Of a DNA stretch of 64,000 bases, positions 23,314 to 52,322 are shown in pieces. Position 1 is the first letter of the stretch. Each line of letters opens with the position of its first letter. The notes beneath the pieces are model-generated. The model was given only the letters and a program-made list of their open reading frames with translations. It was not told where the DNA came from and ran no database searches. The translations under genes and the position numbers were made by a program. The stretch is taken from contig CAWHUO010000019.1 in the NCBI GenBank assembly GCA_963832605.1, positions 38,108-102,107 on the forward strand, given 5' to 3'. This stretch comes from an uncultured Alphaproteobacteria bacterium. GTDB taxonomy: Bacteria; Pseudomonadota; Alphaproteobacteria; Rhizobiales; Xanthobacteraceae.

Positions 23314-23457
23314 CGCAGCCACTATAACCTGATCCTGACGTGCGAGGCCGTGAAACAGCCGAGCGCCGAAGCATGGCTGATACACCATCACCCTTCGAGG
23401 CTCGCTGCGCTCGCACCTCAGGGTGAGGTCGCAGGGCGATTTATTCGAGGCGCTCAG

Positions 23458-31267: not shown

Positions 31268-31353
31268 GGAAAAGCAGGGGAAGGGCGTCAACACGGTGCG
31301 TTTCGGCGTGAGCACGCAGTCGGCAACGCGTTGACCCGCTCGGAGGGACTTAC

Positions 31354-32847: not shown

Positions 32848-32869
32848 CTTGCGGCGCAAGGAGACGGTG

Positions 32870-33619: not shown

Positions 33620-33631
33620 TGCGGGCATAGG

Positions 33632-34909
33632 ATGAGTTCAGCCAGCCAAGCCGTCCAGCTTGAAAGTCCCCCCACCGACGTTGCGGGGCGCGATGAACGT
33701 ATCGCGCCGGCGCCGCGTGTTTCGGTGCAGGCTTTCTGCGAAACCGTGGAAACCGCCGCCGCGATCCAGGCGGCCGGCGAAGATCGGCGCATGGCCAAAG
33801 CGCATCTGCGCATCCAGATGGGCGGCCTGGTCGCCGCGATCGAGGCCTATCAAAACTCGCCGACGCCGAACGTCATCATCCTCGAATCCGAGAGCCGAAA
33901 CGAAGATATCCTGGAGGGGCTCGATCAGCTTTCCCCCGTATGCGACGCCGCCACGCGGGTCATTATCATCGGGCGCGTGAACGACGTCGGGCTCTATCGT
34001 GATATGGTGCGGCGCGGCGTCAGCGACTATCTGATCGCGCCGGTCGGCGCCCTCCAGGTCGTGCGCGCGGTCTGTGGCCTGTTTTCTGCGCCCGACGCCA
34101 AGCCAGTCGGCCGGGTCATCGCCGTGGTCGGGGCCAAAGGCGGCGTGGGCGCTTCCACTATCGCCCACAACATTGCCTTTTCCGTAGCGCGAGACCAGGT
34201 CCTCGACGCGGTCGTGACTGATCTTGATCTCGCGTTCGGTACCGCCGGCCTCGATTTCAACCAGGACCCGCCGCAGGGCATCGCCGAAGCGGTGTTTTCG
34301 CCCGACCGCATCGACAATGCCTTTATCGACCGGCTGTTGTCGAAATGCACCGATCATCTGAGTCTCTTGGCGGCGCCGGCGACGCTGGACCATGTTTACG
34401 ACTTTGGCGCTGACGCATTCGAGGCGATCTTCGATTCACTGCGCGCGACCGTGCCGTGCGTCATTCTCGACGTGCCGCATCAGTGGACCGGTTGGACCAA
34501 ACAAACCCTGGTGGGGGCCGATGACATTCTGATCGTTGCCGCGCCCGATCTCGCCAACCTGCGCAACACCAAGAATCTCTACGATTTCCTCAAGGCGGCG
34601 CGACCGAACGATCATCGCCCGCTCTACTGTCTCAATCAGGTCGGTGTTCCTAAGCGTCCCGAAATCAAGGCCGCCGATTTCGCCAAGGCGCTGGACGACG
34701 AGGCAGTTGCTGCCATCCCGTTCGAACCGCAGGTGTTTGGCGCAGCGGCGAATAATGGCCAGATGATCGCTGAGATCGCCGCCAATCATCGCACTGCCGA
34801 GATATTTCGGCAGCTGGCGCAGCGGTTGATCGGCCGCGCTGAGCCGAAGAAGCAACGGGCGAGCCTGTTCTCGCCGCTGATCGATAAACTGCTGCAGCGG
34901 CAATCTTAG
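33632..34909 (+). CDS. cpaE: Pilus assembly ATPase-like protein CpaE/TadZ
   Basis: 425 aa. Receiver-like N-domain plus a MinD/ParA-type domain with deviant Walker A GAKGGVGAST. Confidence 0.9.
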   Translation: MSSASQAVQLESPPTDVAGRDERIAPAPRVSVQAFCETVETAAAIQAAGEDRRMAKAHLRIQMGGLVAAIEAYQNSPTPNVIILESESRNEDILEGLDQLSPVCDAATRVIIIGRVNDVGLYRDMVRRGVSDYLIAPVGALQVVRAVCGLFSAPDAKPVGRVIAVVGAKGGVGASTIAHNIAFSVARDQVLDAVVTDLDLAFGTAGLDFNQDPPQGIAEAVFSPDRIDNAFIDRLLSKCTDHLSLLAAPATLDHVYDFGADAFEAIFDSLRATVPCVILDVPHQWTGWTKQTLVGADDILIVAAPDLANLRNTKNLYDFLKAARPNDHRPLYCLNQVGVPKRPEIKAADFAKALDDEAVAAIPFEPQVFGAAANNGQMIAEIAANHRTAEIFRQLAQRLIGRAEPKKQRASLFSPLIDKLLQRQS

Positions 34910-34927
34910 CCGTCATCTGGAGTTGCG

Positions 34928-36481
34928 TTGGTGTTTGGCAAGCGTCCCAGTTCCGGCGGTACCGCTCCGGCCGTCATAGATCGGCCGCAGGCGGCGCCGA
35001 GTGCGGCAGCACCGCCGCCGGCTGTCGCGCCTGCTGCCGCCGCTGCCGCAAACGCCGCGCAGCAGGGCGGGCGCACGCCGTTCCCGTCAGCAGGGCTCGG
35101 GGCTCCGATTCTCGGGCCGCCATCGGCTAAACCCGCGGCCAGCCTGCAAAATCCGCCGGTACAAGTCCCTTCCGCAATCGATACCCGCCGCTCGGATACG
35201 TATTACGAAACCAAGGGGACGATTTTCGGCGCTCTGATCGAGGCGATCGACCTCGGTCAGCTCGCCAAGCTCGACGCCGAATCCGCCCGCGAAGAAATCC
35301 GCGACATCGTCAACGAAATCATCGCGATCAAGAACATCGTGATGTCGATCTCCGAGCAGGAGGATCTGCTCGACGACATCTGCAACGACGTGCTCGGGTA
35401 TGGGCCGCTAGAGCCGTTGTTGGCGCGCGATGAGATTGCCGACATCATGGTGAACGGCGCGGGCACGGTCTACATCGAGGTCAACGGCAAGATCCAGCGC
35501 ACCAGCATCCGCTTCCGCGACAATCAGCAATTGCTCAATATCTGCCAGCGCATCGTCAGCCAAGTGGGCCGCCGCGTCGATGAATCGTCGCCAATCTGCG
35601 ACGCCCGACTGCCCGATGGCTCGCGCGTCAACGCCATCGTGCCGCCGCTGGCGATCGACGGACCGGCGCTCACCATCCGCAAATTCCGCAAGGAAAAACT
35701 CACACTCGAGCAGCTTGTCAAATATGGCTCGCTGTCGCCGGAAGGGGCGGCCATCCTCAAAGTGATCGGCCGCTGCCGTGTCAACACGCTCGTCTCTGGC
35801 GGCACCGGCTCCGGCAAGACGACGCTGCTCAATTGCCTCACCCGTTACATCGACCCCGACGAACGCATCGTCACTTGCGAAGACGCCGCGGAGTTGCAGC
35901 TCCAGCAGCCGCATGTCGTGCGCCTGGAAACGCGGCCGCCCAACCTCGAAGGTGAAGGCCAGATCACGATGCGCGATCTGGTGCGGAACTGCCTGCGCAT
36001 GCGACCGGAGCGGATCATCGTCGGCGAGGTGCGCGGCGGAGAAGCGTTCGACCTTCTCCAGGCGATGAATACCGGTCACGACGGCTCGATGGGCACGCTG
36101 CACGCCAACAGTCCGCGCGAGGCGCTATCGCGTTTGGAATCGATGATCATGATGGGCGGATACGCGCTGCCCACGCGTACCATCCGCGAAATGATGGTCG
36201 CTTCCGTCGACATCATCGTCCATGGCGCGCGTCTGCGCGACGGCTCCCGCCGCATCACGCACATTACCGAGGTGATGGGGATGGAAGGAGACGTCATCAT
36301 CACCCAGGATCTGTTTCTGTTCGACATTCTCGGCGAAGACGCGAACGGCAATCTGATCGGTCGACACCGGTCGACCGGCATCGGTCGTCCGAGATTTTGG
36401 GATCGCGCGCGCTACTACGGCGAAGACCAACGCCTTGCGGCCGCGCTCGATGCAGCGAACACGGTAGACGCGCGGGCGTAA
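34928..36481 (+). CDS. cpaF: Pilus assembly secretion ATPase CpaF/TadA
   Basis: 517 aa. Ala/Pro-rich N-terminus, Walker [10 protein letters not shown], Asp/His boxes of VirB11/GspE-like ATPases. TTG/GTG start. Confidence 0.95.
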
Positions 36482-36542
36482 GGCGCGATGGTGGCGCCAT
36501 CTTCCGCGAAGTTAGGTGCCGAGGAGTAATCGGGAAGCCACG

Positions 36543-37517
36543 ATGAATACCTACGTCCTTTTTCTTCTGGTAGCGATCGCGATGGGTGGCGTCGTTTGGG
36601 TATTTGTTTACCCGTTTCTTTCCGGCGAGCGGAATACGGAACGGCGCCTGGCCAGCGTCGCGCAAACTGAGCCGACGGCGCATCGTCCGGCGACGCGGGC
36701 CGCTCACAAAACGCGCCGTGAGCAGGTCGAAGGCAGCCTCAAGCAGCTTGAAGCGCGGCAAAAGACCGCCAGCCGCGTGCCGCTCTCGGTGCGGCTCGTG
36801 CAGGCCGGGCTTAATTGGTCGACCCGCCGCTTTATCGTAACGGCGGCCGTGTTGGGCGTGGCCGCTCTTGCGTTGGCGCTCATGCTGAGAATCGGGTTGG
36901 TGCCGGCTCTCGGCCTAGCGTTTGCCGCTGGGGCCGGACTTCCGTTTTGGATTTTGAGGTTTCTAAAGAAGCGCCGGGAAACGCGTTTTCTTGAGATTTT
37001 TCCGGACGCTGTCGACGTGATCGTACGCGGCATCAAGGCCGGTCTGCCACTGCTCGATAGTCTCAAGCTGATCGCTGCCGAGGCAGAGGAACCCGTTCGC
37101 AGCGAAATCCGCGGCATCATTGAAACGCAGGCGATCGGTATCCCGATTGGCGAGGCTGTTCTGAAGCTCTACGAGCACATGCCGCTGCCGGAGGCGAACT
37201 TCTTTTGCATCGTTATTTCGATCCAGCAACGCGCCGGCGGCAATCTCTCCGAAACGCTCGGCAACCTGTCCCGCGTTCTGCGCGATCGCAAGAAGATGAA
37301 GGCGAAAATCCAAGCCATGTCGATGGAGGCCAAGGCCTCCGCTAGTATCATCGGCGCGCTCCCGATTGCAGTGATGCTGCTCGTGTACATCACCAGCCCT
37401 CAGTACATTTCGCTGTTATGGACGGAATCCCTCGGACGCGTGATGTTGGCCTGCTGCGTCGTTTGGATGTCCATCGGCATCTTCGTGATGCGCAAGATGA
37501 TCAACTTCGATTTCTGA
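36543..37517 (+). CDS. tadB: Type II secretion system F-family inner membrane protein TadB
   Basis: ATG at 36543. T2SSF domain (...FPDAVDVIVRGIKAGLPLLDSLKLIA...). Confidence 0.85.
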   Translation: MNTYVLFLLVAIAMGGVVWVFVYPFLSGERNTERRLASVAQTEPTAHRPATRAAHKTRREQVEGSLKQLEARQKTASRVPLSVRLVQAGLNWSTRRFIVTAAVLGVAALALALMLRIGLVPALGLAFAAGAGLPFWILRFLKKRRETRFLEIFPDAVDVIVRGIKAGLPLLDSLKLIAAEAEEPVRSEIRGIIETQAIGIPIGEAVLKLYEHMPLPEANFFCIVISIQQRAGGNLSETLGNLSRVLRDRKKMKAKIQAMSMEAKASASIIGALPIAVMLLVYITSPQYISLLWTESLGRVMLACCVVWMSIGIFVMRKMINFDF

Positions 37518-37526
37518 GCAACATTA

Positions 37527-38481
37527 ATGCTTCGCCTCCTCGAGCAGCTGATCGATCCGCACGTTCTCGCCATGGTGTTCGCCGCAATCGCGGCCGGTGC
37601 GACAGTGATCACACTGGCGATGCCATTGCTGGTTCGGGACACGCTGTCCACGCGTATGAAGGCGGTGGCCTTCGAGCGCGAAAAAATCCGCCAGCGAGAG
37701 CGCGAACGATTGGCGCAGGGGAATAGAGTTGCGCTGCGGCAATCGCCCAAAGCGTACATGAAAACCGTCGTTGAGAACTTCAATCTCAGCAAATGGGTCG
37801 GGCAGGAGGAAGCTCGCGCCTTGCTGGTGCGGGCGGGCTATCGCGGGCAGGCGCCTTATGTCACCTACCTTTTCTTCCGCATGGTGATGCCGGTGGTCAT
37901 GCTGCTGGGGTCATTGTTTTACGTCTTCGTGGTGATCGACCTCGATCAGCCGGCGTTGATCAAGATCGGAATCGCGATCGGTGCCGCTTATTTCGGCATC
38001 TTGAGTCCGAACCTGTTTCTCAAGAACAAGATTTCAGCGGCGGCAGCTTTCGATTAAGCGCGCATTCCCGGATGCGCTCGATCTGCTCCTGATTTGCATC
38101 GAATCGGGCATGTCGGTCGAGGCTGCCTTTCAGAAGGTCAGTGCAGAAATTGGAACGCAGTCCGTCGAGCTCGCCGAGGAACTCACGCTGACAACGGCGG
38201 AATTGTCCTATCTGCCGGATCGCCGTCAGGCGTACGACAATCTGGCGCAACGCGTTGGTCTCGAAGGCGTGAAATCGGTATGTCTGGCTTTGCAGCAAGC
38301 GGAACGTTACGGCACGGCGCTAGGCACGACCATGCGGGTGTTGTCGCAGGAGAATCGCGATATGCGCATGTCGGAAGCCGAGAAGAAGGCCGCTGGTCTG
38401 CCGCCGAAACTCACCGTGCCGATGATCTTGTTCTTCCTGCCGGTGCTGTTCGTTGTCATTCTCGGCCCGGCGGCGATTTGA
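37527..38481 (+). pseudogene. tadC: Type II secretion system F-family protein TadC, one frameshift near 38033
   Basis: ORF 37527..38057 ends ...LFLKNKISAAAAFD*. The expected continuation RRQLSIKRAFPDALDLLLICIESGMSVEAAFQKV reads in the frame of ORF 38110..38481. Confidence 0.85.
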
Positions 38482-38512
38482 GTCATGGGGCTGCAGTAAT
38501 CCCCGTCGCGGT

Positions 38513-39395
38513 TCATTCCCGCGGCGGCGGGGATCCAAAAGAACTTTGCGCCGTGCTTGAACCTGCCGGATCTCCGCCGCCGCGGGAAAAACGAGTGGAC
38601 AAGCGATCGTCGCCGCGGCGAGCCAGCATCTGCCGCAGATAGGCGACGTTGGCGGCAGCCTCGTCTGGTGGCAGATCGGCGCGCGCGATGGTCTGCGCTT
38701 CCGCGAAACGGCCTTGCAGGCCGACGACGAGTGCGAGGTTCTGCCGCACCCGCGAATTGACCGGACGCTGCGCTGCCGCCCGGCGTAACGTCGTCTCGGC
38801 CTCTCGGTAGATTCTTTGAGAGTGCATAGGAGAGCCCGAGGTTGGAGAGGACCGACGGCTCGTCTGGAACGATCTTCAGCGCGGTCAGGTAATAGCGCTG
38901 TGCGTCGGCATGGCGGCCCATTTGATCGAGCACGGCGCCTTGCGCCGACAAGATGTGCCAGTCGGGCTGGTCGGGCGTATGCGCGCGTTCCAGCACTTCG
39001 AGCGCCTGCCCATAATCCCCGGCCTCGGCCAGCGCCCGCCCGTAGGCGCCGAGGACGGCTTTGTCATGCGGATTCTCGATCGAAAGCCGCTCAAGGACGG
39101 CGACCGCCTGAGCGCGTTGCCCGGTTGCGCGCAACGCCTGGGCATAGCGCATCGCCACGTCGATGTTTGCGGGACTCGCTCGATATTTCTCCCCGTAGAC
39201 TTGAACATCCTGCCGCCAATCGGCATCCGGACGATCAGGCGGCGCCAGCGGCAGCGATCCCGTCGTCTCGGTGGTCTGCGTCGTTTGGCATCCGGCCGTT
39301 GCTACTGCGAGGACGGCGAGAAGGGCAGCCGAGGCGAAGAGGCGAACAGAGAGAATACTGTTCCCACCTGTTGAGGGCATCTCGATCGCTGCCAA
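38513..39395 (-). pseudogene. TPR-repeat lipoprotein (TadD-like), at least one frameshift near 38815
   Basis: Lipobox AVATAGC. TPR repeats lie in ORF 38307..39395 up to ...LGLSYALSK. They continue (RIYREAETTLRRAAAQRPVNSRVRQNLALVVGLQGRFAEA...) in ORF 38513..38827. The true 3' end is uncertain. Confidence 0.7.
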
Positions 39396-39651
39396 AATAA
39401 GTACCGCGGCGCCGGGCGCGCCGCCGCCGCAGGGCAGGTCAGCAATAGAACGTTAACCCTAATGAGAAGTTAACGGCGCCAGATGGGAGTTGGGGTGGTG
39501 CCGGAGGCAGCCAGGCGCTGGGGGAGGGAGCGCGACCGCTGTTGATTGAATTGCCTGCCGCCGGAGCTTCCTGCCGGACCTTGATCTTTTCGGAAAGAAA
39601 CCGCTTGTGGACCAAAGTCAGGTCGGGAGTGGTCTCTTCCGGATCGTCGTT

Positions 39652-40389
39652 CTAGGCCAGCACTTTGCTTGGCGTCGGGCGCATCTCGCCGACATAGCTC
39701 GAGGTATCGCCTTTGGGCCTTTCGCCGGCAATGGCATGACCCTCGACCATGTAATGCACGGCTTCGGCGATATTGGTGGCATGATCGCCGATACGCTCGA
39801 TGTTCTTAGCGCAGAACAGATGGTGGATGCACATGGAGATCGTACCCGGATCCTCCATCGTGTAGGTCAGCAATTCCCGGAACAGGGAAACGTAGAGCGC
39901 ATCGACGTCCTTGTCGGCTTGCCACACTTGCAGCGCCTTGCTCGGGTTGCGATCGACGAAGCTGTCGAGCACCGCCGCCAGCTGTGAGACCACGAGCGCC
40001 GCCATGTGCTTGAGCCCGCGCATCAGCGCGCGCTGCGAATTGTCGCCGCTCACGGCGATGACCCGCTTGCCGATGTTCTTTGCCAGATCTCCGACCCGTT
40101 CGAGATCGTTGGCGATGCGCAACATCGCTACGAGCGCCCGCAGATCGATGGCCATCGGCTGCCGCAACGCGATCGTCGCGATTGCCTTTTCCTCGATCTG
40201 CCGCTGCAAAGCGTCAACCGTCGCATCGGCAGCAATGACCTGGCGTGCCAAGCCGATGTCGCGGCGCGTTAGCGCGTCGATTGAGTCCGTAATTTGCTTC
40301 TGGGCGAAGCCGCCCATCTGCGCGACCAGCTGCGTGAGCTTGATGAGGTCGGTATCGAAGACTTGCGCGGTGTGCTCGGAAACGTTCAT
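39652..40389 (-). CDS. phoU: PhoU family phosphate-signalling protein (no pst genes adjacent)
   Basis: ATG at 40389 (MNVSEHTAQVFDTDL...). Two PhoU repeats carry the conserved E/D-xxx-D motifs (ANDLERVGDLAKNI, AKNIERIGDHATNI). Confidence 0.9.
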   Translation of the reverse strand: MNVSEHTAQVFDTDLIKLTQLVAQMGGFAQKQITDSIDALTRRDIGLARQVIAADATVDALQRQIEEKAIATIALRQPMAIDLRALVAMLRIANDLERVGDLAKNIGKRVIAVSGDNSQRALMRGLKHMAALVVSQLAAVLDSFVDRNPSKALQVWQADKDVDALYVSLFRELLTYTMEDPGTISMCIHHLFCAKNIERIGDHATNIAEAVHYMVEGHAIAGERPKGDTSSYVGEMRPTPSKVLA

Positions 40390-40880
40390 GGCATTTTCGC
40401 AGTCGCTGGCGCCTCGCTTCGGGCGCGTTCTCGTTCCCATTGCCAACGATCGACAACCGCCGAATCCGTGGCAAAGTCTCGCCGCTCCGTGAGCACAAAC
40501 AAGCGAGGCCCCGTGACGTGTGCGACTGTCGTTGGCAAGTGCGTCGTCTGCGTCGTCGGCAAGCGGCTCGATAGTTCCGCATCCGAGTTCGTCGGTTGCT
40601 CGGTCTTGGCGGACGAGCCGCAACGGAACGACGTACAATGGCCCATCGACTTACAACTCGGGCTGCATTAGACGCTGCCGAACACTCGTTAGATGCCGGC
40701 AAACGCCGCGAATCCAATGCGTTATCATCCTACGATTCGAGCGTGACGATCGGATGACACCGGGCTTTCGATAGCTTGACGGAGACGCCGGTCCCCTGTC
40801 ATCACAATCACATCGAGGCGCAAATAAAATTTCACCGATTCGCGGCGCGGCCTTAGGCCGGCCGGGCGTGCAGGGATCGG

Positions 40881-41144
40881 ATGATGGCCTCAGCGGTGGT
40901 GGATGCGATCGGAGCGATCGGCGCCGTCCTGACCACAGTGTGCTGGGTCCCGCAGGCGATCAAGATCATCCGTGATCGGGAAACACGCGCGATCTCGCTG
41001 CCGGGCACGACGTTATGCGTGCTTGGCGTGCTGCTTTGGCTCGTTTACGGGCTGGCGATCGTGGATGGGCCGTTGATCGGATCGAGCGTTGTCACCTTCG
41101 CCATCACGACGGTGATCTTGGTGCTGAAAATCCGCCACGGCTGA
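40881..41144 (+). CDS. SemiSWEET / PQ-loop family transporter
   Basis: 87 aa, three TM helices, PQ motif (CWVPQAIKI). Confidence 0.75.
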   Translation: MMASAVVDAIGAIGAVLTTVCWVPQAIKIIRDRETRAISLPGTTLCVLGVLLWLVYGLAIVDGPLIGSSVVTFAITTVILVLKIRHG

Positions 41145-41158: not shown

Positions 41159-41680
41159 TTAGGCCGCCGATGCCTGCTTGAGCAGGGCAAGCAGGCCTTG
41201 CAGCAATTGCCGCGGCGTGGGCGGGCAGCCGCTGATGTGGAGATCGACCGGAACTACGGCGCCGACTCCGCCGACGACACCGTAGCTGCCAGCGAATACG
41301 CCGCCATCGGCGGCGCAATGGCCCACGGCGACGACCCATTTCGGGTCCGGCGTCGCATTGTAGGTGCGCTCGAGCGCTTCGCGCATGTTCTTGGTCACCG
41401 GCCCGGTCACCAAGAGCACATCGGCATGGCGCGGAGAGGCGACAAAGCGCAGTCCGAAACGCTCCAGATCGTAGAAGGCATTGTTGAGCGCGTGGATTTC
41501 AAGTTCGCAGCCGTTGCAAGAGCCGGCGTCGACCTCACGGATCGCCAGGCTGCGGCCGAGCCGGAGGCGGGCGGCACGGTTGACGCCCTCCGCCAGTTCA
41601 GCAAGCGCGGCGTCATCGGGCAATGGCGGCGCTTCGGTCAGCGGCCGGTGCGTCAGGCTCTCGAACAATGTTCTGCGCAT
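41159..41680 (-). CDS. NuoB/HycG/HyfI-like small subunit of a group-4-hydrogenase-related complex
   Basis: 173 aa. DAGSCNGCELEI, SPRHADVLLVTGPVT, VGHCA and SGCPPTP are present, so all four Cys of the proximal 4Fe-4S cluster are retained. Confidence 0.9.
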   Translation of the reverse strand: MRRTLFESLTHRPLTEAPPLPDDAALAELAEGVNRAARLRLGRSLAIREVDAGSCNGCELEIHALNNAFYDLERFGLRFVASPRHADVLLVTGPVTKNMREALERTYNATPDPKWVVAVGHCAADGGVFAGSYGVVGGVGAVVPVDLHISGCPPTPRQLLQGLLALLKQASAA

Positions 41681-41737
41681 AATTCGCCTTTTTTAGTTGC
41701 GCACGTTTTGCACAGAAAACCGGTTTCTGCGCATGCG

Positions 41738-43266
41738 CTAGAGATCATGCCCCGCATACGAACAGTTGAACGACTTGTTGCAAAGTGGGAAGTCGGCGAC
41801 GATGTTGCCTTCGATCGCGGCTTCCAGCAGCGGCCATTGAAACCACGACGGATCGCGCAGGTGACAGCGATCGATGCGACGCCCGTCGAGTCGAACCCAC
41901 GCCAGCACATCACCGCGGAAGCCTTCGGCGAGACCCAACCCTTCGCCGCCGCTGTCGCCGACGCCATCGAGAGTGGTTGCTAACGGCCCGTCCGGAAGAC
42001 GCGTGAGAATCTGCTCGATCAGTTTCAGGGTTTGCTCGACCTCGCGGATGCGAATCCAGACCCGCGCATTGACATCGCCAGCGGTCAATACGGGTACCGC
42101 GAAATCGAGCTGATCATACGGGGCATAGCCGGGGGCTTTGCGTACATCAAAGTTGCGCCCACTGGCGCGTCCGACATAGCCAGCCGCTCCGAATTGCCGC
42201 GCCAGTTCGGCGCTGACGATACCGGTCGCAGCGGTGCGGTCCTGCAATGAGGCGGTGTTGTCGTAAAGCTCAACCAACCGCGGGAAGCGCTGGCCGATGT
42301 GCTGCAGAGTATCGCGCAGAAGCCTTATCCCGTCGGGGGCAAGATCGCTGGCGACACCGCCCGGTAAGTACCCGGTCCATCATCAGGCGATGACCAAAGC
42401 AGGCCATCGGCTGCGCGCAACACGTGTTCGCGCAGGATTCCGCAATGCGCATGCATGAGGGAAAAGGACGCGTCATTGCAGATGGCGCCGATGTCGCCGA
42501 AATGGTTTGCGAGCCTTTCGAGTTCCGCCATCAGCGCGCGGATATAACGCGCGCGCGGCGGCACTTCGATGTTCAGCGCTGCCTCGATGGCATGAGCAAA
42601 GGCGAGGCCGTAGGCGACGGTGCTATCGCCAGAGGTGCGCGCGGCAAGTTTCGCCGCCCGCTCGATCGTCGCGCCGGTCGTCAGCAACTCGATGCCCTTA
42701 TGCACATAGCCGAGGCGCTCTTCGAGCCGTACGACGGTCTCGCCGCCGGCGGTGAAGCGGAAGTGTCCGGGCTCGATGATGCCGGCATGCACCGGGCCGA
42801 CGGGAATCTGGTGCAAGGCTTCGCCTTCCGTCGGCAGAAACGTGTAGGCGGCTCGCTCGGCTGGTGCCGGTGTGCGCGCGCCGAGCGGATGTTGCACGTC
42901 CCAAAAGCCGAGATCGAGCCAGGGCCGCATATCCGGCGCGCCGACCGGCTCGTATCCGTAGAGGCTGTTAATCGCGCGCTCGAGGCGGATGGCTGGCGGA
43001 TGCACTGCGCCGACCGACGGAAACTTTCCGGCCGGGCATTCGAGGCTGATCACCGCGCCGTCGCCGGTTAAATCCTCGACGATCGCCATGTGGACCATGG
43101 GCACGACGCCGCTGTCGGCCCAGAGGCCGAAGAGCGTCGCCTGACCAGCGGCGATCTCGCTCGCGACGCGGCGCCAGACTTCTGCCGTCACGGTGAAGCG
43201 CGGCCAGGGCCGGTGACCGTCGACGCGGTCGCCCTCGGGGATGATGTCGAGAAGCGCAGCCATCAT
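41738..43266 (-). pseudogene. Fused NuoC/NuoD-like (HycE/HyfG-like) large subunit lacking Ni-Fe cysteine ligands; two frame changes near 42405 and 42365
   Basis: ATG at 43266, 1 nt after the upstream gene's stop. NuoC-like domain (HPPAIRLERAINSLYGYEPVGAPDMRPW). NuoD-like domain (PVGPVHAGIIEPGHFRF, LEERLGYVHKGIE). The L1 position reads LAARTSGDSTVAY and the C-terminal motif position reads NKSFNCSYAGHDL. Pieces are ORFs 42325..43410, 42270..42476 and 41738..42277. Confidence 0.85.
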
Positions 43267-43267
43267 C

Positions 43268-44707
43268 TTAGCCGAGCAGTCCAGCGACGTTCTGGAACCA
43301 GGCGACGAGTACGGGGGGCATGTAGATGCCGGCGGCCAGCACCAATCCAAGATGAGCGAACATCGGGACGTAGGAGGCCTGGGCCTTGGCATTGGAACCG
43401 TGCGGCTCACCGAAGGCGATGCTGTTGAGCCGCAGAAAGAGCCCGGCCAAGCCGACGAGAAGGCCGAAGACGAGAATGATCGCGAGCAACGGGGCGCGGG
43501 CGAACGTCGAGCTCACCACCAGAAATTCGCTCATGAAAATGCCGAGCGGCGGCAGCCCTGCGATCGCGACGACGCCAAGCACAAGACCCCAGCCGATGAC
43601 CGGATGAGTCTCAGTGAGGCCGCCGATATCGGCGATCCGCTGGCTGCCCTTGACCTGGGCGACATGGCCGACCGCAAAGAAGATCGCCGATTTGGTGAGC
43701 GAATGCATGGTCATGTGCAGGAGACCGGCAAAATTGGCGAGCGGACCGCCCATGCCGAACGCAAACGTGATGATCCCCATGTGCTCGATCGATGAATACG
43801 CGAACAGCCGTTTGATGTCGCGGCGGCGGTAGAGCATGAACGCCGCGAACACGAGGGAGATCAATCCGAGCGTCACCATCAGCGGGCCCGGCGCGAGCGC
43901 AGCCTGATTCACCGCCAGCAGCATTTTGAAGCGCAACAGAGCGTAAAGCGCGACGTTGAGCAGCAAGCCCGACAGCACCGCCGAGATCGGCGTCGGACCC
44001 TCGGCATGCGCATCGGGAAGCCAGGCGTGCAGCGGCGCGAGCCCGACCTTGGTGCCATAGCCCAGCAGCAGGAAGACAAAGGCGAGATTGAGCAGCGCCG
44101 GATCGAAATCGCCGGCGCGGGTGACGAGCACGGTCCAGACCATGGCGTCGAGACCTTCGCCGACCACCGGGCGCGCGGCCATATAGACGAGGATGGTGCC
44201 GAACAGCGCGAGCGCAATGCCGACGCTGCCGAGGATGAAGTATTTCCACGCGGCTTCGAGCGCCTCGTGGGTGCGGTAGATGCCGACCATCAGCACGGTA
44301 GTCAGCGTTGCCAGCTCGATCGCCACCCACATCAGACCGATGTTGTTGGCGACGAGCGCCAGATTCATCGCGAACATCAGGACTTGATACATGGCGTGGT
44401 AGAAGCGCACGAACGGCGGCGTCAGCCGTCCGATTTCCAGCTCATGGCCGATATAGCTTAAGCTGAACACACTGGTGGTGAAGCCGACGAAGGTCGTGAG
44501 CACGATGAACGTGCTGTTGAGATCGTCAACCAAAAGGTAGGGGCCGGGCGCCGGACGCTTGAAAAACAGCGAGAGCGCGCAGAGGAACGTCAGCGTCGTC
44601 GCCGCGACGTTAATCCGCGCCGTCGCCCGATAATCCGGCAGCACCGCCAACAGCGCGGCGGCCGCGGCGGGAATGAAGAGCACGCCGGTCAGAGCGTCGA
44701 AGTTCAT
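43268..44707 (-). CDS. NuoM/NuoN/HyfF-like antiporter-type membrane subunit
   Basis: 479 aa intact ORF, 14 predicted TM helices. Mrp/NuoLMN family signature regions (GYGTKVGLAPLHAWLPDAHAEGPTP). Confidence 0.9.
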   Translation of the reverse strand: MNFDALTGVLFIPAAAAALLAVLPDYRATARINVAATTLTFLCALSLFFKRPAPGPYLLVDDLNSTFIVLTTFVGFTTSVFSLSYIGHELEIGRLTPPFVRFYHAMYQVLMFAMNLALVANNIGLMWVAIELATLTTVLMVGIYRTHEALEAAWKYFILGSVGIALALFGTILVYMAARPVVGEGLDAMVWTVLVTRAGDFDPALLNLAFVFLLLGYGTKVGLAPLHAWLPDAHAEGPTPISAVLSGLLLNVALYALLRFKMLLAVNQAALAPGPLMVTLGLISLVFAAFMLYRRRDIKRLFAYSSIEHMGIITFAFGMGGPLANFAGLLHMTMHSLTKSAIFFAVGHVAQVKGSQRIADIGGLTETHPVIGWGLVLGVVAIAGLPPLGIFMSEFLVVSSTFARAPLLAIILVFGLLVGLAGLFLRLNSIAFGEPHGSNAKAQASYVPMFAHLGLVLAAGIYMPPVLVAWFQNVAGLLG

Positions 44708-45366
44708 CGGCGTTCTCCACGGAAGCGGTCGAGCGCCTGCACGTCGACCGTGTCAAAACGCTCGCGAATGCGGAACAGAAAGATTCCGATCACGATGAAG
44801 GCGATCAGGACGGAGAATGCGACGCTGATCTCAACCACGAGCGGCATGCCTTTGGCGCCGGTCGCCGCAAGTACGAGCCCATTCTCCAGCGACATGAAGC
44901 CGACCACCTGACTGACTGCATTTCTTCGCGTCACCATCATTAGCAGGCCGAGCAGCACCACTGAGAGGGCGAAAGCGAGATCCTCGCGCGCGATTGGATC
45001 AGCGCCGTGCGTCACGCGCAGCATGACCACCATGGACAGTGCCACCAGGCCCATGCCGGCAAGCATGGCGGGACCGACGCCTACCACCTTCTCGATCTCG
45101 CGGTGAATGCCGAGCCGCACAATGATCCGATGCAGCGAAATCGGAATGACGATCGCCTTGAAGACGAGTGCGATCGCCGCGGTGACGTAGAGATGCGGAG
45201 CATCCTGGACGAGAGCCTGCCAGGCGACCGAGGCGGACAGCACCAGCGCGTGCAGCGCGTAGGTGTTGATGAGCGCATAAAGCCGGTCCTGGTAGAGCTC
45301 GAGGAAGCTGATCAGCACCAGCAAGCCGGCGAGCAGATGGGCGATGTCGAATTCGAGCCGGCTCAT
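44704..45366 (-). CDS. HyfE-like membrane subunit
   Basis: ATG at 45366 (MSRLEFDIAHLLAGLLVLISF...), 220 aa, hydrophobic. The start overlaps the stop of the preceding reconstructed gene (TGATG). The stop overlaps the next gene's start. Confidence 0.8.
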   Translation of the reverse strand: MSRLEFDIAHLLAGLLVLISFLELYQDRLYALINTYALHALVLSASVAWQALVQDAPHLYVTAAIALVFKAIVIPISLHRIIVRLGIHREIEKVVGVGPAMLAGMGLVALSMVVMLRVTHGADPIAREDLAFALSVVLLGLLMMVTRRNAVSQVVGFMSLENGLVLAATGAKGMPLVVEISVAFSVLIAFIVIGIFLFRIRERFDTVDVQALDRFRGERR

Positions 45367-46323
45367 CAGAAGCTCCCAGACACGAACCGCAGCAGCGTCG
45401 CCAGGAGTCCGAGCATCAGGGCGACGCCGAGAAACTCCGGGACGCGGAACACGCGCATTTTGGCGATCGAGGTCTCGAACAGTCCGAGCAGGAAGCCGCC
45501 GACGGCAAGCTTTCCGACATAGGCGGCAATTCCGACGACGAGCGTCGGCAGTGCGGCAGCCGGCCGCTTCGATGCCCCATGGCGCGAACAGGCAGGCGAG
45601 CAGTGAAACGTAAAGGATGAGCTTGAGCGAGGACGACAGCTCGATCAGCGCCAGGTGCCGGCCGGAATATTCGAGCACCATCGCCTCATGCACCATCGTC
45701 AGCTCTAAATGTGTTGCCGGGTTGTCGACGGGGATACGGCCGTTCTCGGCGATCGCCACAATGACGAGGCCGACGAGCGCGAGGCCGAGCGAGACGCGCA
45801 ATCCAACCTGCGGCGACGCCATGAATTCGGCGACGGTCGAGAGCTGCGTCGAGCCGGCGATCAAAGCGAGCGTGAACACGAGCATGATCATCGCCGGCTC
45901 GGCGAGCGAGGCGATCATAACTTCGCGGCTTGATCCAATGCCGCCGAAGCTCGTGCCGACATCCATCCCGGCCAGTGCGAGGAAGAAGCGCCCGCTGCCG
46001 AGAAGAGCAATGATGGCGATGAGGTCGGCCGACCAGGAGAACAAAAGCCCGGTGCGGAAAGTCGGCACCAGCGAAGCTGCGACCCAGGTGGCGGCGAAGA
46101 TGAGGTAGGGGATGACGCGAAACAGCCACGAGGCGCTCTCCGCGAGCACTACCTCCTTGCGCATGAGCCGCACCAGATCGAGGTAAGGCTGAATGAGCGG
46201 CGGGCCCTCGCGGCGCAGCAGCCGCGCCTTCACCTTGCGCACGAACCCGGTGAACAGCGGCGCGAGGAGCAGCACCAACAGCATCTGTGTACCCTGAACG
46301 GTCAAATCGCGGATCAGGACCAT
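45366..46323 (-). pseudogene. NuoH/HycD/HyfC-like membrane subunit, one frameshift near 45555
   Basis: ATG at 46323 (MVLIRDLTVQGTQMLLVLLLAPLFTGFVRKVKARLLRREGPPLIQPY). After ...APWGIEAAG the listed frame turns into Arg-rich nonsense. My translation of the adjacent frame gives AALPTLVVGIAAYVGKLAVGGFLLGLFETSIAKMRVFRVPEFLGVALMLGLLATLLRFVSGSF*, ending at the hyfE-like start. Confidence 0.85.
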
Positions 46324-48326
46324 ATCGCAAGCACCAACAGCAAAATGACCAGGGCGCCGAATACCAGGGTCAGGAATTGGCGGATGGTCAGAAATTGCAG
46401 GCGATTGAGCCGGGTGGCGGTGGCGCCGATGCCGACAACAAGCGGCGCATAGAGCCAGTCCCAGACCGGATCGGAGAGCTCCACCCTGAACCGCGCCGGA
46501 CGCGTGTCGCCGGGCGGCGGCATCTCGACGTGCTCGCGGGCGTGGAAGACCATGGTGCCGAACACGCGGCGGATCGGCTGCGCGAAGCTCATGGCCGTGT
46601 ATTGCGTCGCCGGGCTCGCATCGGGATAGCCGCAATCCCAGGCCGGCGCGCGGCGCAACCGGTCCGAGGCGAAGCGGTGGATCGCGGACGCCGCGAGCGT
46701 GCCCGATATGATCATGAACAGAAAAACAAGCAGGCCGTCATAGGAGCTGCGGCTTGCGGCGATCGGGACGATCGAGAGCCATTGCGCGCCGATTTGCACC
46801 GGCATGCGCGCGCCGATCAGTGCCGATGAAACCGGCGCCAGCGCATCGATGAACAGAGCCGGGCAGGATTCCGGCGAGCAGGCACAGCAGCGCCAGAATG
46901 CAACATCGCGGCGAGCGAGAAGCGGTCAGTTTCGGCTGCGAGCTCGGCGGCGGCGCGTGCGCGGCCGGCCGAGAAACGTCACGCCGTAGGCCTTGACGAA
47001 GCAGGCGGCGGCGAGCGCCGCCGAGAGCGCCAGCAGTGCGCCGACGGCCGGTACCAGAAGCTTCAGCCCCCATGACGGCAGTTGCGGGCTCAGCAGGATC
47101 GCTTGGAACGTCAGCCATTCGGAGACAAAGCCATTGAGCGGCGGCAGCGCCGAGATCGCCGCGCAACCGACGAGGAAGACGAACGCGGTCTGCGGCATGC
47201 GGTGGATGAGGCCGCCGAGATGCTCCATGTCGCGTTCGCCGGTTGCGGTCAGCACCGCGCCGGCGCCGAAGAAGAGCAGACTCTTGAACAACGAATGATT
47301 GAACACGTGCAGCAGCGCCGGCGGTCAGCGCCAGCGCCGCGGCGAATGCCATGCCGTAAGTCTTGAAGGCGAGCGCGAGTCCGAGACCGATGAAGATGAT
47401 GCCGATATTTTCGACGGTGTGATAGGCGAGCAGACGCTTGAGATCGTGCTGCATCAGCGCATAGAGAACGCCCATGACGGCGGTGATACCGCCGACCGCG
47501 AGCACCACAATGCTCCACCACCAGGCAGCAGCGCCGGCAAGATCGAATACGATGCGCACGAAGCCGTAGACGGCGACCTTCGTCATCACGCCGCTCATCA
47601 GCGCGGAGACGTGGCTCGGCGCCGCCGGATGCGCGAGCGGAAGCCACACATGCAGCGGAACAACGCCAGCCTTCGAGCCCGCGCCAATGAGCGTGAGGAT
47701 AAGCGCCAACGCCCCAATCGTCGCGGAGGGATGCGCCGCGCGCATCTGCGCGAATGTATAAAGACCCTCCGGACCGGCGAGCAGGCCGAACGCCAGCAGC
47801 AAAGCGAGGGTGCCGAAACTCGCCATGACCAGATAGACGTAGCCGGCACGGACGTTCTCGGGCACGCGCGGGTGCGACATCACCAGCGCCCACGACGTCA
47901 GCGACATGAACTCCCAGCAGAACAGAAAAGTGAAGGCGTCATCGGCGACGACGACCAGCGTCATCCCCGCAAGAAACGCGGGATAGAACGGCAGCACGCG
48001 CTGCGGCGCCGTTTCATGTTCGCCATAGCCGAGCGCGAACAGGCTCGCGCTTGCGGCGCCGAGATCGACGACGATGAGGAAAAAAGCCGAGAGCGCGTCG
48101 AGCCGGAAATGCGCGCCAAGCCACGGCACGCCGAGCGGCAGCGTGACGCTGCAACGGTTCGGCCGCGCCGAGAAGATGTACCGCCGCGGCGACCAGCGAA
48201 ATCGCCGCAATGACCATGCTCGCGCCGTAGATAACGCGCGTGGCCGCTCGCGAGCGTCCGATGATCGACGGCGAAGGCTGCAAGCGCGAGCAGCATCGCG
48301 GCGCAGACAAGTGCGATCGTCAGCAT
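46314..48326 (-). pseudogene. NuoL/HyfB-like antiporter-type membrane subunit, about 6 frame changes
   Basis: Homologous sequence threads through ORFs 47961..48329, 48014..48310, 46738..48210 and 46926..47306. It then passes a short third-frame stretch (ETDRFSLAAML), the 46738 frame again (ILALLCLLAGILPGSV) and ORF 46314..46805. Switch points are about 48250, 48152, 47320, 46950, 46900 and 46840. Confidence 0.8.
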
Positions 48327-48580
48327 CACGTGGCCGACGTCTTTAGCCGCACGCCGCGCCCGCCATTTTGGCTCACCGTATTGTCGGAGATGAGTACAAT
48401 GCCGAGCGCGTCCAGCGCCGCGACAAGCTTCATCAGCGAATCGACGTTGCCCCGGATCACGCCGTCGCTCGCCTCCATGCGCTGAATGGTCGGTAGCGAC
48501 AGCCCGGCGGCTTCGGCAAGCCTGCGCTGATCAATGCCGAGAAGTGCGCGCGACGCCCGGAGCTGGCCGGCGGTAATCAT
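48326..48580 (-). CDS. XRE-family helix-turn-helix transcriptional regulator
   Basis: 84 aa. MITAGQLRASRALLGIDQRRLAEAAGLSLPTIQRMEASDG is a Cro/C1-type HTH. Its TGA shares one base with the ATG of the HyfB-like gene (TGATG at 48328-48324). Confidence 0.8.
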   Translation of the reverse strand: MITAGQLRASRALLGIDQRRLAEAAGLSLPTIQRMEASDGVIRGNVDSLMKLVAALDALGIVLISDNTVSQNGGRGVRLKTSAT

Positions 48581-48874
48581 GGGGTAAGACCGAATGATGC
48601 TTGGAATCGGTATTCTTACGCATATCCAATCTATATTGATGGCACAATCATATTTGCCACAATCGCCGAAAAGCGCCGAATACTACATCTGTCAGATTCG
48701 TGCTGGTTTTTTTATTTGGGATGCTTCCGGAATACGGCGGCCAAGCCAGCACTTCACGCCAAGTGTCGATCCATGGCGTCGCCGAAGCGCTCGCGCTCGT
48801 TGGCCGTGGCCCTTGGCTGTCTCGGCACGGCCTAGTTGGCACAGTCTGATGCATCAAGCACGCATTATGATGGT

Positions 48875-49010
48875 TTGAAAACTATATATCTAATATAGAT
48901 GTATAATATTGGACGTCTAAAATATATTAATACATGTTGAAGTCACATCTTTCGATATTTTATATCTAAGAAGTTCCAAATAAAGTATTTATTAACCAGC
49001 TCCGACTCTA
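48875..49010. other. Sharply AT-rich intergenic island (roughly 25% GC) in a roughly 65% GC background
   Basis: Direct reading gives aaaactatatatctaatatagatgtataatattggacgtctaaaatatattaatacatgttgaagtcacatctttcgatattttatatctaagaagttccaaataaagtatttattaacc. TATATCTAA occurs twice. There is a short inverted repeat, ATCTA-ATA-TAGAT, at 48888-48900. Confidence 0.8.
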
Positions 49011-49674: not shown

Positions 49675-52322
49675 ATGAACTACGCAACTCTTCGCTCCGC
49701 AACCGTCGCTCACCAACCGATGGTCGGCGGGACCGAACTTGAGAGCCAAAAGAAACAAGGGATTGCCGCACTCGTCGTCGGCGTGGTTCTGCAAACGGGC
49801 GCCGTTGCAGCACACTATGCCGGCTTAGCAATGGCCATGAACGGCCTCGCTGTTGGTACTGCCATCGCGATCGGATATGCGGCGATCTGTCTTTATCGTA
49901 TGCGCGCCCCCGTCGGCGCCACGCTGCAAAGGACCGGGCTCGATGATCTGCGCATACAATCGGCGCTTGAGGCCTGCAAAACCAACGTGATGATCGCGGA
50001 CGATCAATACAACATCGTCTACATGAACGCGACCATGCTGGCGATGATGCGGGCTGCCGAGGCGGAGCTGCGCAAGGACATCCCGACCCTTAACAGCAAC
50101 AAGCTGATCGGCGTTAACATCGATACGTTCCACAAGAACCCGGCGCATCAGCGACGCATTCTGGAAGGCTTGAGCGGACCGATCGAGACCGATCTCAGCA
50201 TCGGCGGTCGCAGCTTTCATTTGGTCGTCACGCCGATTTTCCAGGACGGAAGCAAAGTTCGGCTTGGCACCGTCGTTGAATGGCAGGACCTAACCGCGGC
50301 GCGCGCTGCGGAGAAGGTAGCGCGGCGGCTGCAAGCGGCGCTTGAACTCATGCCAAACCAACGTCATGGTCGCCAACGAAAACTACGACATCGTGTACAT
50401 GAACGACACGATGCTGCAGATGATTCGGGCGGCGGAAGGCGAGATGCGCAAGGACGTGCCGGCGCTCGACAGCAGCAAGCTGATCGGCGCCAACATCGAT
50501 ATGTTCCACAAAAATCCGGCGCATCAGCGGCGCATCCTTGATGGGTTGAGTGGCCCGATCGAGACCGATCTCACCATCGGCGGCCGCAGCTTCCATTTAG
50601 TGGTCACGCCGGTCTTCGAGGAGGGAAGCAAAAAGCGGCTCGGCACCGTCGTCGAGTGGCAGGACTTAACAGCGGCAAAGGCAGCCGAACGCGAAGCTCT
50701 CCGCGTGCGCGCGGCGCTCGATTCCTGCCAGACGAACGTTATGGTCGCCAATGAGCATTACAACATCGTCTATATGAACAATACGATGTTGGAGATGATC
50801 CGGGCGGCCGAGAACGAAATACGCAAGGACGTTCCGGCGCTCGACAGCCGCAAACTCATCGGCGCAAATATCGACATTTTCCACAAGAATCCGGCGCACC
50901 AGCGGCGTATTCTGGATGGATTGACCCGCCCGATCGAAACCGATCTTCGGATCGGCGGCCGCAATTTCCACCTAGTGCGTCTCGCCGGTCGTGGACAAGG
51001 ACGGCAAACGCCTTGGCACGTCCGTGGAGTGGAAGGACGAAACCGCCGAGAAGGCGATCGAGGCTGAGATTGACGGCGTCGCCAAAGCCGCTGTCGCCGG
51101 CGACTTCTCACGCCAGCTTACGCTCGAAGGCAAGAAGGGGTTCATGCTCAATCTGGCCACTGCGATGAACGGCCTATGCCAAAACACCGCCGGTGCGCTG
51201 GATGACCTCGTCCGCATGCTGAGCGCCCTCGCCGACGGCGATCTGACGCAGCAAATCACCGCCGATTATCAGGGTGCGTTTGCCAAGCTGAAAACCGACG
51301 CGAACGTGATGGCCGATCGGCTGAGCTCGACAATAGGCGAAATCAAGATGGCGGCGCGCGAAGTATCGTCCGCGACCGCGGAAATCTCGACCAGCACCAC
51401 TGATCTATCGCAGCGGACCGAGGAACAAGCCGCGAGCCTCGAACAGACATCGGCATCAATGGAGCAAATGTCCGCGACCGTTAAAAAGAACGCAGAAAGC
51501 GCGCAAGAGGCCAATCACTCGGCTGCAAGCACCCGTGACGTCGCCGACCGCGGCGGTCAGGTAGTCGCTAAAGTCGTTGACGCCATGGCGCGGATCGAGG
51601 AATCGTCGCGCAAGATTTCCGACATCATCGGCGTGATCGACGAGATTGCACGGCAGACCAATCTGCTCGCGCTCAACGCCGCCGTTGAGGCGGCGCGGGC
51701 CGGCGAAGCCGGTCGCGGCTTCGCGGTCGTGGCGTCGGAAGTCCGCAGCCTCGCGCAACGATCCTCGCAGGCCGCCAAAGACATCAAGGACCTGATTATC
51801 AGCAGTAACAGTCAGGTGAAGGACGGTGTCGATCTCGTCAACAAGGCCGGTTCCGCATTAAATGAAATTGTGGAGTTGATCAAAAAGGTGGCCGACATCG
51901 TCGCCGATATCGCTTCGGCTAGCGCCGAACAAGCGGGTGGCATCGAGCAGGTGAACAAAGCCCTCACCCAGATGGATGAGGTCACACAGCAGAACTCCGC
52001 GCTGGTTGAGGAGAACGCTGCGACGGCGAAGACACTCGAGCATCAGGCGAGCCTCATGGACGAACGGATAGCCTTCTTCCGCGTCGGCGACGCAGAGGCG
52101 CACGCGCCGCTCGCCGTCGAAACGACTGCGGCTGCGCCCAAGGTAGCCGAGATTGGGACGGCCCAAACGAAGAGCCAGCCGAGCAAGCCCGCTGTAGCCG
52201 CGCGTAAGACTGGTAACGGAGCCAACGGCGCAGCGGCAACTGCCTCTCGACGCGGTCCGGCAGGCCGCACGCAGGCCGCGCTTGCTACAGCCGTCAAAGA
52301 CCCGGAGTGGAAAGAATTCTAG
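49675..52322 (+). pseudogene. Methyl-accepting chemotaxis protein with three tandem PAS-like domains, HAMP and signalling domain; two 1-nt insertions (about 50341 and 50985)
   Basis: ATG at 49675. Two TM segments and three 125-aa repeats. Highly conserved hairpin [42 protein letters not shown]-terminal pentapeptide EWKEF. Pieces are ORFs 49585.., 50342.. and 50991..52322. Confidence 0.9.
49963..51090 (+). repeat. Three tandem diverged 375-nt coding repeats (PAS-like modules)
   Basis: Units start at about 49963, 50338 and 50714 (ALEACKTNVM.., ALNSCQTNVM.., ALDSCQTNVM..). By eye, units 2 and 3 are roughly 80% identical at nucleotide level. Confidence 0.85.

Follow-up and report, generated by a model that had tools for sequence, protein, structure and literature searches.

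What becomes of a hydrogenase-like membrane complex whose catalytic subunit has lost every ligand of its nickel-iron site? This question is raised by a six-subunit operon on the minus strand of contig CAWHUO010000019.1, from an uncultured alphaproteobacterium of the Xanthobacteraceae, of which we analyzed a stretch of 64,000 nucleotides (here called the window). The locus is a member of the hyqRBCEFGI (Hyq) family within the energy-converting hydrogenase-related (Ehr) group, and is one more copy of an operon that has already been described. We take it to be neither an [NiFe] hydrogenase nor a pseudogene cluster. Judging from sequence comparisons, it would instead encode a non-NiFe, reversible proton-translocating redox module with a single [4Fe-4S] cluster, an identity and general mechanism to which we assign a probability of about 60%.

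All six co-directional minus-strand genes described in the initial annotation were confirmed, although a seventh, encoding an XRE-type regulator, had been overlooked (Table 1). The seven genes form a packed series in the order R-B-C-E-F-G-I and in one direction (48580 to 41159). Their start and stop codons abut or overlap, the TGA stop of hyqR and the start of hyqB sharing the sequence TGATG, and the sole exception is a gap of 57 nucleotides before hyqI. At least 593 stretches of GTDB species-representative genomes hold related loci, and our comparisons cover the 80 best of these, or subsets of 75, 66, 64 and 52 loci. Gene order was essentially constant in those of the 80 that hold the whole operon, and the regulator gene is the immediate 5' neighbor of hyqB, with the same orientation, in 59 of the 64 loci with enough sequence. 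HyqR is probably the operon's own regulator.

The same operon is known from Azorhizobium caulinodans ORS571 (AZC_4355-4361, FJ378904), where it was described by Ng 2009, Ciccolella 2010 and Sprecher 2012 (PMC2650096, PMC2930871, PMC3357923). We established the correspondence from the published description, with the copy of Rhizobium johnstonii 3841 as a proxy for the AZC_4355-4361 sequences. The window agrees with it in the seven genes and their order, in the small regulator at the front, in the lengths of the proteins and in where their cysteines lie, and hyfA, hyfD, hyfH and hyfJ are missing in both. The A. caulinodans HyqG is a NuoC::NuoD fusion of 504 amino acids without either CxxC and with cysteines at positions 258, 491 and 497 (PMC3357923, PMC2650096); the corrected HyqG of the window (508 amino acids) has Cys263, Cys495 and Cys501, and family members of 504 amino acids have Cys259, Cys491 and Cys497. 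For the A. caulinodans HyqI, Cys55, 58, "112" and 152 were assigned to an N2-type cluster (PMC3357923, PMC2650096), where we take "112" to stand for 122 or to reflect a small difference in length. The proxy copy lies on plasmid pRL11 of R. johnstonii 3841 and likewise comprises seven genes, including a 504-amino-acid HyqG that is 66% identical to that of the window and carries like motifs. Rhizobium is among the genera listed by Sprecher 2012 as bearing orthologues (PMC3357923).

In the window as given, hyqB, hyqC and hyqG are each split across several reading frames, and the call to polish the locus proved well founded. One explanation would be that the frameshifts are real and that this organism carries only the decaying remains of an operon that no longer functions. 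Three of the six structural genes do carry frame breaks, nine in all, a truncated protein of 313 amino acids (P0001) is called in the public annotation, and the density of insertions and deletions (indels) inside the operon is about 1.8 times that of the flanks. However, every break is a 1-bp insertion, with no stop-codon substitutions and no deletions among them. As a reference we used a contig of another ENA assembly (L081), 97.3% identical over 21.3 kb. The two sequences differ by 525 substitutions and 44 single-base indels over the whole 21.3 kb, flanking genes included, and L081 has a different set of breaks that does not overlap the nine insertions private to the window. When the state of one or the other assembly was chosen at each indel, all six structural open reading frames (ORFs) became whole, with 669, 318, 220, 479, 508 and 173 amino acids, and an intact protein of 99% identity (P0045) bridges the break in hyqG. 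Between the two copies of the operon we counted 99.5 synonymous versus 21.5 non-synonymous substitutions, corresponding to a pN/pS of ∼0.077 (raw Nei-Gojobori proportions, as a proxy for dN/dS), with values below 0.3 for the peripheral subunits. Genes unrelated to the operon are broken likewise, namely the AcrB-type, methyl-accepting chemotaxis protein (MCP) and tadC-like genes of the window and a 2-hydroxyacid dehydrogenase (2-Hacid_dh) gene in L081, and the 1-bp indel errors thus span the whole window rather than the hyq operon alone. Similar fragmentation was seen in many related loci from long-read "MFD" metagenome-assembled genomes (MAGs), to which many of the nearest relatives belong. 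Since the breaks in L081 differ, the mosaic of the two contigs restores the genes and pN/pS is so low, we conclude that the nine insertions are assembly errors and that purifying selection maintains an intact operon in this lineage. We consider decay extremely unlikely.

Correction of the frame did not restore the nickel-iron site. The strings that had been quoted for the two Ni-Fe motif positions of HyqG, LAARTSGDSTVAY and KSFNCSYAGHDL, are both present, and HMMER and MAFFT alignments of the corrected subunit with Escherichia coli HycE and HyfG place C241, C244, C531 and C534 of HycE opposite Ser212, Ser215, Ser502 and Gly505. Where group 4 hydrogenases have the motifs RxCGxC (L1) and DPCxxC (L2), HyqG reads RTSGDS and FNCSYAG. 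The conserved Cys501 is not a retained C-terminal ligand, as the HMMER and MAFFT alignments both place it one residue before the C531 position. HyqG ends in ...GHDL, two residues past the histidine, and has no C-terminal extension of the protease-cleaved kind.

This loss is a property of the whole clade. Across the 80 loci the four ligand positions hold Ser (78 of 80, with Cys in two), Ser, Ser and Gly. Deviations from RxSGDSTV were limited to three loci, all at the first serine, with a further change at the second serine in one locus; the variants are RTCGDSTV, with a cysteine at the first former ligand position, in two loci and RIAGDGTV in one (L007, L039, L037). Among the ∼95 nearest full-length representatives of 50% clusters, only six keep all four cysteines (38 to 40% identical) and the others are of the S-x-S-G type, for which reason the ligand-less clade, by this sequence sampling, is large and old.

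The residues around the former active site are strongly conserved. The stretches VGPVHAGIIEPGHFRF, R-x-SGDSTV, ELER-A-NH-GD-GAICNDA and ADFPLCNKSFNCSY-G-DL are invariant or nearly so, as are the pocket motifs RxSGDSTV, EPGHFRF, CND and NKSFNCSY, which points to a constrained site. On the alignments, this site combines traits of hydrogenases with traits of NuoD: the EPGHF loop is kept together with its glutamate, as in hydrogenases, while the aspartate of CND where HycE has a histidine, and the missing C-terminal extension, are as in NuoD. An informative case is provided by a betaproteobacterial MAG (L061), in which a second E-F-G-I cluster, 40 to 59% identical, lies directly upstream of the hyq operon (144-4343). 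Its large subunit retains GRVSGDSTVAY and NKSFN-SYSGHDL yet has none of the three cysteines published as "completely conserved", and the pocket is thus not a cysteine-based metal site. Duplication was also seen in L050 and L072 (2703-6735), which carry tandem hyqB genes.

Among solved structures, the best relative of HyqG is E. coli HycE (7z0s_E; HMMER E = 5.5e-56). An AlphaFold model was built for the intact homologue P0002 from a shallow alignment of 39 sequences at least 73% identical, and reached a mean predicted local distance difference test (pLDDT) score of 64.9. Its best matches in the PDB were HycE (template modelling score of 0.71) and then fused NuoCD, so that the model supports a HycE-like assignment of the overall fold only.

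Experiments on the A. caulinodans operon led the Ludwig laboratory to a different view, which was overlooked when the role of the complex was initially called not established. There, Hyq is held to be a true H2-cycling "endo-hydrogenase", an H2:ubiquinone oxidoreductase with a non-canonical catalytic site in HyqG, which recycles the H2 of nitrogenase and works in the reverse direction at <1 μM O2. Consistently, strains deleted for hyq grow more slowly as diazotrophs, the operon depends on NifA (PMC2650096), and the very high H2 evolution of a hupSL mutant drops about five-fold upon hyq deletion, also in a nifK background (PMC3357923). The invariant glutamate of the EPGHF loop and the small subunit, whose CxxC is of the hydrogenase type rather than the CC pair of NuoB, also speak for this view. 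Against it stand the replacement of all four Ni-Fe ligands throughout the clade, the L061 cluster with its Ser/Asp pocket but none of the three cysteines, the missing extension of HyqG, and the fact that hyp and protease genes were not found in the window. The authors themselves call the Ni,Fe site "uncertain, if not unlikely", and since their deletion also took out hyqR, we infer that indirect effects are possible. Importantly, an intact operon has been kept by Rlv 3841, a strain for which, together with all R. leguminosarum bv. trifolii strains analyzed, the hup/hyp cluster has been reported missing (PMC5852556). Because Rhizobium 3841 keeps the operon though reported to lack hyp, we regard the endo-hydrogenase claim as doubtful on present evidence, and H2 cycling as an unlikely function. 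The initial verdict that the complex is not a hydrogenase is accordingly favored by the lost ligands, the missing extension and Rhizobium 3841, but it contradicts the published claim for Hyq and was reached by inference only.

If the large subunit offers no metal, what carries the electrons? HyqI has Cys55 and Cys58 (in a CxxC), Cys122 and Cys152, in agreement with the four cluster cysteines noted initially, and these are invariant in all 75 loci that could be compared. They are predicted to bind one [4Fe-4S] cluster, which would be the sole cofactor; neither HyqG nor HyqI has another cysteine motif of the iron-sulfur (FeS) type, and there is no NuoI-like subunit.

The membrane arm appears competent for proton transfer. 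Glu139, Lys219, Lys250 and Glu403 of HyqB and Glu131, Lys220, Asn251 and Glu394 of HyqF are all invariant. They correspond to residues of NuoM and of E. coli HyfB/HyfF, the pattern in HyqF being that of E. coli HyfF. The Glu of transmembrane helix (TM) 5, Lys of TM7, Lys of TM8 and Glu/Lys of TM12 that are typical of antiporter-like subunits are thereby present, with Asn251 of HyqF at the TM8 position. HyqE retains the NuoK-type membrane glutamate (in LENG) without exception. In HyqC, the loop ATHLELTMVHEAM stands where NuoH and HycD have EAEQEL; 11 of its 13 residues are the same in all of 66 loci and the other two in at least 90%.

Such an arm could also work without any redox reaction. Hyq would then be a Mrp-like cation/proton antiporter whose peripheral arm and FeS cluster are structural or regulatory relics, as might be suggested by the intact proton-path residues and by the lack of both a NuoI-type input subunit and an adjoining redox partner. 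A relic, however, would hardly keep the four cluster cysteines and ∼50 residues of the HyqG pocket region invariant across Alpha-, Beta- and Gammaproteobacteria, or hold the pN/pS of its peripheral subunits below 0.3, and we consider this explanation very unlikely.

The comparison with known complexes defines what Hyq has in common with them and what it lacks. Searches of the 64-kb window by tblastn with E. coli queries (E ≤ 0.01) found none of HyfA, H, J and R, FocB, HycA, B, F, H and I, HypA-F, FdhF, HydN and FhlA, or NuoA, E, F, G, I, J and K, which bears out the initial observation that a ferredoxin subunit, formate dehydrogenase, hyp genes and hycI are missing. Compared with E. coli hydrogenases 4 and 3, identities are 42 to 50% for HyqB, 40% for HyqF, 37% for HyqC and 45% for HyqI (with Hyf). 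The EPGHF loop and the small-subunit CxxC are kept, and HycE (PDB 7z0s) is the best match of HyqG in both sequence and fold. In contrast, HyqG is only 29 to 33% identical, with Ser, Ser, Ser and Gly for the four cysteines and no C-terminal extension, and HyfA/HycB, HyfH/HycF, HyfD, FdhF, Hyp and HycI have no counterpart in the window. Of the features that define group 4 [NiFe] hydrogenases, we found neither the NuoI/HycF subunit with two [4Fe-4S] clusters nor the HycB/HyfA ferredoxin subunits (in the 64 kb, and with no conserved extra gene in the 80 loci), nor hyp genes and an endopeptidase (in the window), nor a cleavable C-terminal extension.

With complex I, Hyq shares homologues of NuoB, NuoCD and NuoH, NuoK-like and NuoL/M/N-like subunits, the antiporter Glu and Lys residues, the NuoD-type aspartate beside the pocket (CND) and the lack of a C-terminal extension. 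It differs in having Ile and Gly in HyqG for His224 and Tyr273 of NuoCD, and CxxC instead of the CC pair. NuoA, NuoI and NuoJ as well as the NADH module NuoEFG are missing from the window, which, within its limits, holds no set of 11 to 14 subunits. The initial statement that this is not a full complex I, to which the missing NuoK can be added, is therefore upheld. So is its assignment to the Ehr group, a name given by Marreiros et al. 2013 (pmid 23000657): the clustered NuoB, NuoD, NuoH and antiporter-like homologues, that is, modules of group 4 hydrogenases and complex I, and a large subunit without Ni-Fe cysteines are both found here. Ehr is nevertheless a broad and heterogeneous label, whereas the proteobacterial Hyq clade has a fixed set of six subunits plus HyqR, without a NuoI-like subunit and without a linked formate dehydrogenase. 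The function of Ehr complexes was still called unknown in later genome papers (PMC6349859, PMC10284858). The same six structural genes, hyfBCEFGI, have been described in Cupriavidus metallidurans CH34 (Rmet_4666-4671) and Cupriavidus necator H16 (H16_A2196-2201), where a role in lithotrophy was judged "very unlikely" (PMC2864759). We compared these by description, and the betaproteobacterial loci in our set have the seven-gene order. Overall, the interpretation put forward in the initial annotation is partly supported.

How might a reversible proton-translocating redox module of this composition work? We propose a hydrogenase-4-like membrane arm in which HyqB and HyqF would be the antiporter-like subunits, HyqC the NuoH-like and HyqE the NuoK-like one, joined to a peripheral arm of only two proteins, HyqG (fused NuoC-NuoD) and HyqI (NuoB-like). 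Electrons would pass through the single cluster of HyqI between two sites. At the first, a cytoplasmic partner, most likely ferredoxin or flavodoxin, would bind at the usual NuoI/HycF dock. The second would be the conserved Ser/Asp pocket at the HyqG-HyqI-HyqC interface, with a membrane quinone or quinol as the likeliest substrate. The redox reaction would be reversibly coupled to proton translocation by HyqB and HyqF. As a specific pairing, ferredoxin or flavodoxin with quinone or quinol is tentative, and we rate it somewhat below an even chance; it would be in keeping with the dependence of expression on NifA and with the impaired diazotrophic growth seen in Azorhizobium.

Several observations weigh against this proposal. 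In HyqG, Gly (Gly213) and Ile are aligned with Tyr273 and His224, the two residues by which NuoD binds quinone, so that quinone binding would need to be non-canonical. The pocket regions of the P0002 model (residues 113-189, 337-398 and 468-503) have pLDDT values below 50. A gene for an electron donor or acceptor adjoins the operon in none of the 80 loci, so that both partners had to be inferred. Finally, hyq of A. caulinodans has been credited with ∼80% of microaerobic H2 evolution, in the nifK background too (PMC3357923), and the ferredoxin-quinone model gives no direct account of H2 evolution linked to hyq.

The loss of the quinone Tyr and His might alternatively mean that the complex is redox-active on a small soluble molecule, neither quinone nor H+/H2, that is reduced in the pocket at or near the [4Fe-4S] cluster. 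Reduction of sulfane sulfur at or near the cluster has reportedly been proposed for the MBS complex of Pyrococcus, which offers an analogy. The strictly conserved, polar and Cys-free pocket (Ser, Asp, Asn, Tyr, His) and the remodeled NuoH-like coupling loop ATHLELTMVHEAM would suit such a substrate. However, no conserved neighboring gene in the 80 loci points to a substrate pathway, and the hosts are mostly aerobic, ubiquinone-containing Proteobacteria; we regard this possibility, too, as unlikely.

A bolder version of the redox module, which we find improbable though slightly less so than either H2 cycling or a small soluble substrate, is that Hyq is a Hyp-independent, nickel-free catalyst and a minimal complex-I-like proton pump, in which the chemistry of the Ser/Asp pocket would be new to the superfamily. 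If true in a first form, H2 would be turned over without a Ni-Fe center, and the lost ligands would then no longer conflict with the genetics of Azorhizobium. In a second form, the proton motive force would drive electrons uphill from quinol to ferredoxin or flavodoxin, which would constitute a third route to low-potential reductant in aerobic soil bacteria, beside Rnf and FixABCX.

The family is widespread. Hosts include Bradyrhizobium, Mesorhizobium, Ensifer, Rhizobium, Rhodopseudomonas and Methylovirgula as well as beta- and gammaproteobacterial MAGs. The MAGs nearest to the window are labeled Xanthobacteraceae, the family in which Azorhizobium is also placed by the NCBI taxonomy. Searches of plasmid records gave 170 matches at E ≤ 1e-30, 85 of them covering at least 80% of HyqG; the 170 need not all be Hyq, and their organisms include Escherichia, Proteus and Rhodococcus. 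No NCBIfam model attains its cut-off on HyqG, and subunits of this type are named inconsistently (P0022 and plasmid matches H12, H13 and H23), as "NADH-quinone oxidoreductase subunit C", "hydrogenase expression protein HypE" or "nickel-dependent hydrogenase large subunit". Given that some HyqG records are named "HypE", the "hypE" of Mesorhizobium huakuii was considered as a further HyqG and ruled out, being a true HypE of 355 amino acids. Exact-protein look-ups of P0001 and of the window's HyqF returned no record. A literature search returned nothing useful on the expression or fitness effects of rhizobial hyf genes.

Regulation of the operon seems to differ between the window and Azorhizobium. 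Neither in the window nor in 52 related loci did the region upstream of hyqR show the NifA box and sigma-54 promoter that mark the nif regulon and that the Azorhizobium operon has. More precisely, within 400 nucleotides upstream the window has no sigma-54 site (GG-N10-GC) that fits at least 8 of 11 consensus positions, and the 52 other loci gave only sporadic weak matches. The window does have a near-match, TGGCAA-N6-TTGT, but its two halves are not at the right distance. The window also has no nif genes. On the upstream sequences, control by NifA and sigma-54 looks like a trait of the Azorhizobium copy and not of the family. The window has an AT-rich island of ∼140 bp (about 48864-49010) in a genome of 62% GC. 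Four overlapping sigma-70-like hexamer pairs (48864-48930) are found 290 to 350 nucleotides upstream of hyqR, which would give an unusually long leader, and the island matches no Rfam family at the gathering threshold. In L006, L009, L013, L031, L035, L047, L065 and other loci, a palindrome GATGT-N5-ACATC (for example, TGATGTATAAAACATCA) recurs 20 to 110 nucleotides upstream of hyqR and is a candidate operator for this XRE-type regulator; the window shows no evident copy of it.

The locus by itself adds little, being an orthologue, marked by errors of assembly, of an operon known since 2009 and belonging to a family already modeled by NCBI; nor does this copy make the chemistry of the family any more testable than cultured strains already do. 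The puzzle lies in the family, a conserved derivative of complex I and hydrogenase 4 that is widespread in soil and rhizosphere Proteobacteria and has one FeS cluster, but lacks a Ni-Fe site, a canonical quinone site and any redox partner encoded with it. Experiments have led to a single claim about its activity, reversible H2:quinone turnover, which is at odds with the sequence. Useful for the design of experiments are the near-invariant pocket, the cysteines that are dispensable in the paralogue, hyqR with its candidate operator, and the presence of hyq in Rhizobium 3841.

Table 1. Features of the hyq operon and of its surroundings in the window (aa, amino acids; nt, nucleotides)
Feature	Position	Strand	Description
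hyqR	48326-48580	minus	84-aa XRE-type helix-turn-helix (HTH) protein, Pfam HTH_31/HTH_3; ORF intact
hyqB	46314-48326	minus	HyfB/NuoL-like antiporter-type subunit, 669 aa corrected; NF005086 "hydrogenase 4 subunit B", 893.6 bits (cut-off 667)
hyqC	45366-46323	minus	HyfC/HycD/NuoH-like, 318 aa corrected; Pfam NADHdh, E = 5.6e-36
hyqE	44704-45366	minus	HyfE-like membrane subunit with NuoK-like C-terminal half, 220 aa, intact; NF008556, E = 5.9e-26, below cut-off; PF00420 weak
hyqF	43268-44707	minus	HyfF/NuoM-N-like antiporter-type subunit, 479 aa, intact; NF005043, 873.6 bits (cut-off 533)
hyqG	41738-43266	minus	fused NuoC-NuoD/HycE-like large subunit, 508 aa corrected
hyqI	41159-41680	minus	NuoB/HycG-like small subunit, 173 aa, intact; PF01058, E = 5.9e-35
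hyqB 1-bp insertions (n = 6)	48266, 48150, 47317, 46954, 46900, 46858	minus	absent from L081; removal gives an uninterrupted 669-aa ORF
hyqC 1-bp insertion (n = 1)	45558	minus	L081 state restores the frame
hyqG 1-bp insertions (n = 2)	42402, 42369	minus	L081 state restores the frame
Upstream region	48581-49010	minus	leader of ∼285 nt and AT-rich island; consensus matches only
AcrB-type resistance-nodulation-division (RND) pump gene	3322-6084	plus	broken into at least three ORFs
MCP gene	50342-52322	plus	in two pieces; whole in L081
tadC-like T2SSF gene	37527-38642	plus	in two pieces; whole in L081
SemiSWEET-like PQ-loop gene	40881-41144	plus	convergent with hyqI
PhoU-domain gene	39652-40638	minus	
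tad/cpa pilus cluster	∼30500-39400		RcpC/CpaB, secretin, CpaE, CpaF, TadB/C, tetratricopeptide repeat (TPR) protein
Small signal recognition particle (SRP) RNA	23462-23557	minus	RF00169, 57.8 bits, E = 4.6e-10; directly upstream of dnaX
Long ORF at dnaX	21130-23622		overlaps the SRP RNA

A Pfam scan of 30 further ORFs of the window found nothing related to the operon, only efflux, tad-pilus, chemotaxis and housekeeping genes. Clustering of neighboring genes in the 80 loci likewise revealed no conserved partner beside the operon other than the HTH gene. On the hyqI side, the operon is followed in the window by the PQ-loop gene, the PhoU-domain gene and then the tad/cpa cluster, none of which is conserved beside hyq in other genomes. 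Farther away, the overlap of the long ORF at dnaX with the SRP RNA implies that the true start of dnaX lies further downstream.

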